DNA from: Escherichia coli
GTDB lineage: Bacteria > Pseudomonadota > Gammaproteobacteria > Enterobacterales > Enterobacteriaceae
Assembly (NCBI RefSeq): GCF_024223415.1
Contig: NZ_CP100500.1
Length of the DNA: 64,000 nucleotides
Direction: 5' to 3' (one strand)
Part shown: positions 61,581 through 62,528 of the stretch, in pieces
How positions within the stretch are numbered: position 1 is the first letter of the stretch
Layout: every line of letters starts with the position of its first letter
The notes under the pieces: generated by a model
The model's input: only the letters and a program-made list of their open reading frames with translations
What the model was told of the DNA's origin: nothing
The model's database searches: none
Position numbers and translations under genes: made by a program

Positions 61581-62528
61581 ATGGAAAACAGTGACGATAT
61601 CCGTTTGATTGTGAAGATTGCCCAACTCTATTACGAACAGGATATGACGCAGGCGCAAATCGCGCGCGAACTGGGTATTTACCGCACCACCATCAGCCGC
61701 TTGCTTAAACGAGGCCGCGATCAGGGAATTGTCACCATCGCCATCAACTATGACTACAACGAAAATCTCTGGCTGGAGCAGCAACTGAAGCAAAAGTTTG
61801 GCCTGAAAGACGTTGTGGTGGTGTCGGGAAATGATGAGGATGAAGAGACTCAACTGGCGATGATGGGGTTACACGGCGCGCAACTGCTGGATCGCTTGCT
61901 GGAGCCTGGCGATATTGTCGGTTTTTCCTGGGGTCGCGCGGTGAGCGCACTGGTTGAAAACTTGCCGCAGGCGGGGCAATCGCGGCAGTTAATCTGCGTA
62001 CCAATTATTGGCGGACCGTCCGGTAAACTCGAAAGCCGCTATCACGTAAACACATTAACCTACAGCGCGGCTGCGAAGCTGAAAGGGGAATCGCATCTCG
62101 CGGATTTTCCGGCTCTGCTGGATAACCCCTTAATTCGTAATGGGATCATGCAGTCTCAGCACTTTAAAACCATCTCTGCCTACTGGGATAATCTGGATGT
62201 CGCCCTGGTGGGAATTGGCTCACCGGCCATTCGCGACGGAGCTAACTAGCATGCGTTTTATGGTGGTGAAGAGAGTGACGACCTGAATGCCCGCCAGGTT
62301 GCTGGCGATATTTGCTCGCGCTTTTTTGATATTCACGGCGCAATGGTTGAAACGAATATGAGCGAAAAAACACTCTCTATCGAAATGAATAAATTAAAGC
62401 AGGCACGATATTCCATTGGCATTGCCATGAGTGAAGAAAAATACAGCGGAATTATTGGTGCACTGCGTGGAAAATATATTAATTGTCTGGTAACGAATAG
62501 CAGCACAGCTGAACTATTACTGAAATAA
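61581..62528 (+). pseudogene. sorC: SorC-family regulator (sorC-like) interrupted by an in-frame TAG at 62247..62249
   Basis: AGGAGG RBS then ATG 61581; N-terminal HTH (TQAQIARELGIYRTTISRLLKRGR) and sugar-binding domain; the frame stops at TAG after ...AIRDGAN and the same frame continues (HAFYGGEESDD...GALRGKYINCLVTNSSTAELLLK) to 62528, together giving about 315 codons. Confidence 0.75.

Follow-up and report, generated by a model that had tools for sequence, protein, structure and literature searches.

We analysed a 64,000-nucleotide stretch of Escherichia coli DNA (contig NZ_CP100500.1 of assembly GCF_024223415.1), referred to here as the window, the last part of which enters the L-sorbose operon sorCDFBAME. 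The first gene of this operon, the regulatory gene sorC, is interrupted by an in-frame amber codon. The features of the locus are as follows.

61234–61580, + strand: rluF–sorC intergenic region, presumed to hold the sor promoter and operators
61331–61360: promoter-like site, from a consensus scan
61408–61421: palindrome TGCACAccTGTGCt, candidate SorC operator
61442–61452, 61454–61462, 61538–61546 and 61554–61564: direct repeats ACAAATGTGCA (two copies) and GAGAAAGCG (two copies), overlapping the palindromes
61551–61564: palindrome TGCACAaaTGTGCA, candidate SorC operator, adjoining the ribosome-binding site
61581–62528, + strand: sorC pseudogene, L-sorbose operon regulator, 315 codons with one internal stop (translation, Pfam, match to 2W48, PGAP)
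61581–62246, + strand: retained frame of 222 codons, encoding the helix–turn–helix (HTH) region (about residues 1–52) and 165 residues of the Sugar-bind domain
62247–62249, + strand: amber TAG at codon 223, ancestrally TGG (Trp223), with the G-to-A change at 62248
62250–62528, + strand: orphaned C-terminal coding remnant, codons 224–315 and the TAA, outside translation from the sorC start
62598–63404, + strand: sorD, sorbitol-6-phosphate dehydrogenase of the SDR family, intact, with its own Shine–Dalgarno sequence (NCBIfam NF004817, 499 bits against a cutoff of 304)
63414–63821, + strand: sorF, sorbose PTS EIIA of the mannose/sorbose class, intact (TIGR00824, 148 bits against a cutoff of 98)
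63821–64000, + strand: sorB, sorbose PTS EIIB, first 60 codons, where the window ends

Translation of positions 61581–62540 gives a frame that opens at ATG 61581, with a Shine–Dalgarno AGGAGG 5' of the start codon, and reaches its natural end at TAA 62526–62528. Its lone internal stop is the TAG at codon 223, flanked as AAC TAG CAT. The first-pass annotation had described a clean frame from 61581 to this TAG, continuing to a total of about 315 codons, and retranslation reproduced its coordinates exactly. In the list of open reading frames the gene appears split, with one frame running to 62249 and an in-frame remnant of 61 codons running from ATG 62343 to 62528. We looked for Shine–Dalgarno sequences upstream of the in-frame ATGs of the remnant (62343, 62358 and 62385) and recognised none.

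To identify the gene, we examined the repaired protein, in which codon 223 is read as Trp. It aligns over residues 1–315 with residues 1–315 of Klebsiella pneumoniae SorC (PDB 2W48; E = 1.4e-183), and its residues 1–50 are identical or nearly identical to the DNA-binding domain of that structure. Because the alignment runs end to end, the stop interrupts a real, conserved gene and not a chance open reading frame. Residues 51–315 are also nearly identical to the Shigella flexneri effector domain deposited as 3EFB ('probable sor-operon regulator'). In Pfam, several HTH models match residues 11–52, and Sugar-bind (PF04198) matches residues 58–315 over positions 2–257 of its 257. The window gene resembles K. 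pneumoniae SorC in its length of 315 residues, in its HTH and Sugar-bind plan and in its place in the operon, but the Klebsiella protein is complete and functional whereas the window allele ends at codon 223 (Wohrl et al. 1990; de Sanctis et al. 2009). Pfam, the 2W48 alignment and the operon position thus agree with the initial identification of the gene as the sor-operon regulator SorC.

The same TAG is present in seven complete E. coli genomes (S51, SCU-316, O78 strain 3, GPEC1446, NCTC10444, NCTC9112 and KV7), hereafter the carriers. In S51, the sorC of which is 100% identical to that of the window, the gene order is pgi-lysC-yjbD-rluF, then sorC-sorD-EIIA-EIIB-EIIC-EIID-sorE, then pepE-yjbB-metH. 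The locus is therefore the E. coli sorCDFBAME operon at its usual site between rluF and pepE/metH, and in S51 and all other carriers sorC is its first gene, on the same strand as the downstream genes for the SDR dehydrogenase, EIIA, EIIB, EIIC, EIID and sorbose-1-phosphate reductase. In each of the seven carriers the annotation gives all six structural genes as intact. The first-pass annotation had called the downstream genes intact, which holds within the window for sorD and sorF; for EIIB it does not follow from the window, in which only 60 codons lie, and it is in the seven carriers that sorB is seen as a full-length coding sequence of 495 bp.

The window strain has a private substitution in SorD, S19T (TCC to ACC, 62652–62654), within the TGGxSGIG NAD-binding glycine motif. 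None of the 1,601 complete genomes matching its 61-mer carries this change, and the seven carriers all have Ser; it may be a neutral change, or constraint on the gene may have begun to relax.

Upstream of sorC, a search for TGCACA-NN-TGTGCA with at most two mismatches returned two matches in the 64 kb, both 5' of sorC and 143 bp apart. Two matches are no more than chance would give in the window; what is notable is solely their co-location 5' of sorC. This arrangement is suggestive of both palindromes being SorC operators. A consensus scan for internal promoters and terminators gave only weak matches, at about the frequency expected from shuffled sequence.

Predicted effects of the stop on the regulator

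On the Pfam boundaries, the stop removes residues 223–315, amounting to 93 of the 258 effector-domain residues (36%), and leaves the HTH untouched. A complete Sugar-bind effector domain is therefore absent from the encoded product, which ends at residue 222, in line with the earlier proposal that part of this domain, here placed at residues 58–315, is lost. Judged from its sequence, sorC in the window is a member of the SorC family by descent, as a pseudogene, and not a functional member.

In SorC the DNA-binding domain comprises residues 1–50, and the effector domain of the family has a NagB-like double-Rossmann fold (PMC11229326). The N-terminal domains hold together dimers that read a half-operator, and effector-domain dimers bridge two DNA-bound dimers into a tetramer through an interface that responds to the effector (PMC11229326). 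A Rossmann-type domain without its last third would be unlikely to fold, to bind effector or to make the contacts through which the tetramer assembles on DNA. A truncated domain that did fold should still fail to sense effector and to assemble the tetramer. Loss of the last third of the effector domain thus argues that the allele is effectively null.

We weighed two ways in which some regulation might survive. In the first, the 222-residue fragment would be stable and would bind the sor operators through its HTH; the result would be non-inducible repression, tighter than the shut-off produced by a null allele. Both the untouched HTH (about residues 1–52) and the candidate palindromic operators upstream of sorC are compatible with such a fragment, but its 165 residues of incomplete double-Rossmann domain would probably misfold and be degraded, and the effector-domain dimerisation that is the source of bridging and avidity would be lost. 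We consider this outcome unlikely.

In the second, an amber suppressor tRNA or natural readthrough at codon 223 would still yield useful amounts of full-length SorC, and regulation would be largely kept. The base after the TAG is C, reportedly a context in which E. coli terminates translation rather weakly, and no structural sor gene is disrupted in the carriers. Background readthrough of stop codons in wild-type cells, however, is normally far below 1%. A supE background is absent from S51, the carrier examined, because in its metT-leuW-glnUW-metU-glnVX cluster both CUG-type tRNA-Gln genes (glnV and glnX) read CTG at the anticodon, as in the wild type. We found supE44, the suppressor allele of glnV, in 155 complete genomes, and those among the matches listed are K-12 laboratory derivatives; a search for tRNA genes within the 64-kb window found none. 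A genome-wide suppressor would also need to have been maintained across eight isolates that differ in host and continent. Useful production of full-length SorC is accordingly very improbable, and we retain the reading that the allele is effectively null.

Ancestral codon and distribution of the amber allele

The first-pass annotation had traced the TAG to a tryptophan codon by a single G-to-A change. Codon 223 is TGG in every intact allele inspected, including those of SCU-111, O157:H7 PV15-279 and O111, from which the window differs at this codon by G to A at 62248. The residue is also conserved: the surrounding motif, GANWHAFYG, is identical in Klebsiella SorC (2W48) and 3EFB, and Trp is kept at this position in the distant homologue 2GNP. 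Relative to SorC of E. coli O157:H7 (WP_001301875.1), which lies at the same chromosomal site, the window allele has 99.3% nucleotide identity, with 7 differences in 948 bp. The intact SorC proteins of E. coli and Shigella that were compared have Trp223; the stop occurs on one haplotype alone.

The change at 62248 also creates the tetranucleotide CTAG (62246–62249). CTAG is strongly under-represented in E. coli genomes, a bias linked to very-short-patch repair.

The gene was found in 2,868 of 5,426 complete E. coli genomes. An exact 61-mer centred on the TAG is present in 7 of 2,863 complete genomes with the gene and absent from the other 2,856. The seven carriers were isolated in Europe, China and the USA from humans, poultry, a pig and a calf. 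They share one 948-bp gene sequence, and in the region of the operon no more than one SNP per 11.3 kb separates them. Over 25 kb their identity to the window is about 100%, with the next-best genome at 98.9%. Across 61.4 kb the window and S51 differ by 19 mismatches and 4 gaps. Given these differences and its private SorD substitution, the window strain is an eighth carrier, distinct from the seven assemblies.

The presence of an identical TAG on one haplotype of at least 25 kb in seven genomes indicates a single origin and not a sequencing error, and we regard the TAG as a real mutation that arose once on this haplotype. To ask whether the carriers are clonal genome-wide, we compared a distant 25-kb locus of S51, which proved to be 100% identical in many genomes, including O113:H21 and other B1-like strains, and so does not discriminate. 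The sor operon is common outside phylogroups A and B1 but rare within them.

Two trivial readings, for which we found nothing in favour, can be set aside with near certainty: a sequencing or assembly error is ruled out by the same TAG in the window strain and in seven independent complete assemblies, for which laboratories and technologies differed (eight independent sequences in all), and a locus naturally made of two genes is ruled out by the intact alleles inspected, each a single 315-codon frame with TGG, by the crystallised K. pneumoniae protein, which is one chain of 315 residues, and by the rarity of the TAG 61-mer.

In all seven RefSeq carriers, PGAP labels the gene as a 'sugar-binding transcriptional regulator', pseudo, with an 'internal stop'. 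A literature search for discussion of this sorC allele found none. The allele is an ordinary, lineage-specific nonsense pseudogene of sorC that is rare and already flagged in public annotation.

Expected operon expression and L-sorbose use

According to the part of PMC12817954 that cites Wohrl et al. 1990, SorC is a repressor without L-sorbose and an activator with L-sorbose. Regulation of sor transcription in response to L-sorbose has been described for Klebsiella and for E. coli ST131 and ST648, in which sorbose induces the operon (PMC12817954), and cloned sorCDFBAME gives growth on sorbose (PMC2831201). A null sorC would leave the operon at low expression and uninducible, with L-sorbose-dependent activation lost. 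The first-pass annotation had proposed derepression or silencing; of silencing and weak constitutive expression, the dual role of SorC would favour silencing.

Expression might be lowered further by polarity, because 348 untranslated bases separate the TAG from sorD. A C-rich, G-poor stretch was looked for in these 348 nucleotides and not found (61 C and 79 G), so that strong Rho-dependent polarity is not evident. Given this composition and the fact that sorD has its own Shine–Dalgarno sequence, a polar effect is uncertain.

The phenotype expected from these considerations would be Sor-negative, or slow use of L-sorbose, despite intact structural genes. Searches of the literature for the sorbose phenotype of O78, avian or carrier strains found none; papers on Posse medium mention sorbose as an ingredient only, and sorC is absent from recent papers on sorD knockouts. 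The intact structural genes of the carriers would fit a recent mutation but would fit continued use of the operon equally well. Taken together, we favour, with a probability of roughly 0.82, an explanation in which sorC was inactivated once by the change of Trp223 to an amber codon, the allele is effectively null, and the operon is low in expression and uninducible, making its carriers Sor-negative or slow on L-sorbose.

L-sorbose fermentation is a classical biotyping character. More recent work proposes that the sor operon marks fitness in high-risk lineages of E. coli (PMC12817954, PMC13410766). Calls based on the presence or absence of the operon would misclassify strains such as these, in which all the genes are there and the regulator is broken. 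More generally, gene-presence calls can overstate the capacity for sorbose use, which calls for caution in predicting phenotype from genotype.

Other sorC lesions and neighbouring genes

A different lesion of sorC is present in O111 08-4455 (O111:H8) and RM9322, in which an inserted T (GGT to GGTT) near codon 293, equivalent to window position 62458, shifts the frame over the last 22 or so codons; PGAP marks this gene as 'frameshifted'. As in the window, the regulator is a pseudogene, independently inactivated, and the annotation of 08-4455 shows its structural sor genes intact. The O111 lesion, however, is a frameshift on a different haplotype, whereas that of the window is a nonsense TAG. 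Cryptic sor genes have also been described in Sor-negative Shigella and E. coli pathotypes, which keep their sor DNA (Lehmacher & Bockemuhl 2007, cited in PMC2831201 and PMC2808357); possibly they do so without using L-sorbose, as predicted for the window.

Two unrelated backgrounds have thus lost the regulator only and kept the six structural genes, a pattern that might point to selection. More than two cases of regulator-only inactivation would be needed to infer it, and it seems quite unlikely that sorC inactivation is recurrent and adaptive as opposed to neutral decay. If it were adaptive, selection would be for low, uninducible sor expression in animal-gut niches, for instance because toxic build-up of sorbose-1-phosphate would be prevented or the expense of induction spared.

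Elsewhere in the window, a SopA-family (yjbI-like) gene at 39422–41002 on the − strand is a single intact frame of 526 codons. Its counterpart in the nearly identical S51 is one base shorter and annotated as 'frameshifted', so that either the two strains truly differ here or the S51 assembly contains an indel error. A DUF2713 family gene at 30362–31383, also on the − strand, is divided into two overlapping frames of 248 and 94 codons and is annotated by PGAP as 'frameshifted' in S51; the split gene presumably corresponds to the yjbL/yjbM pair of K-12.
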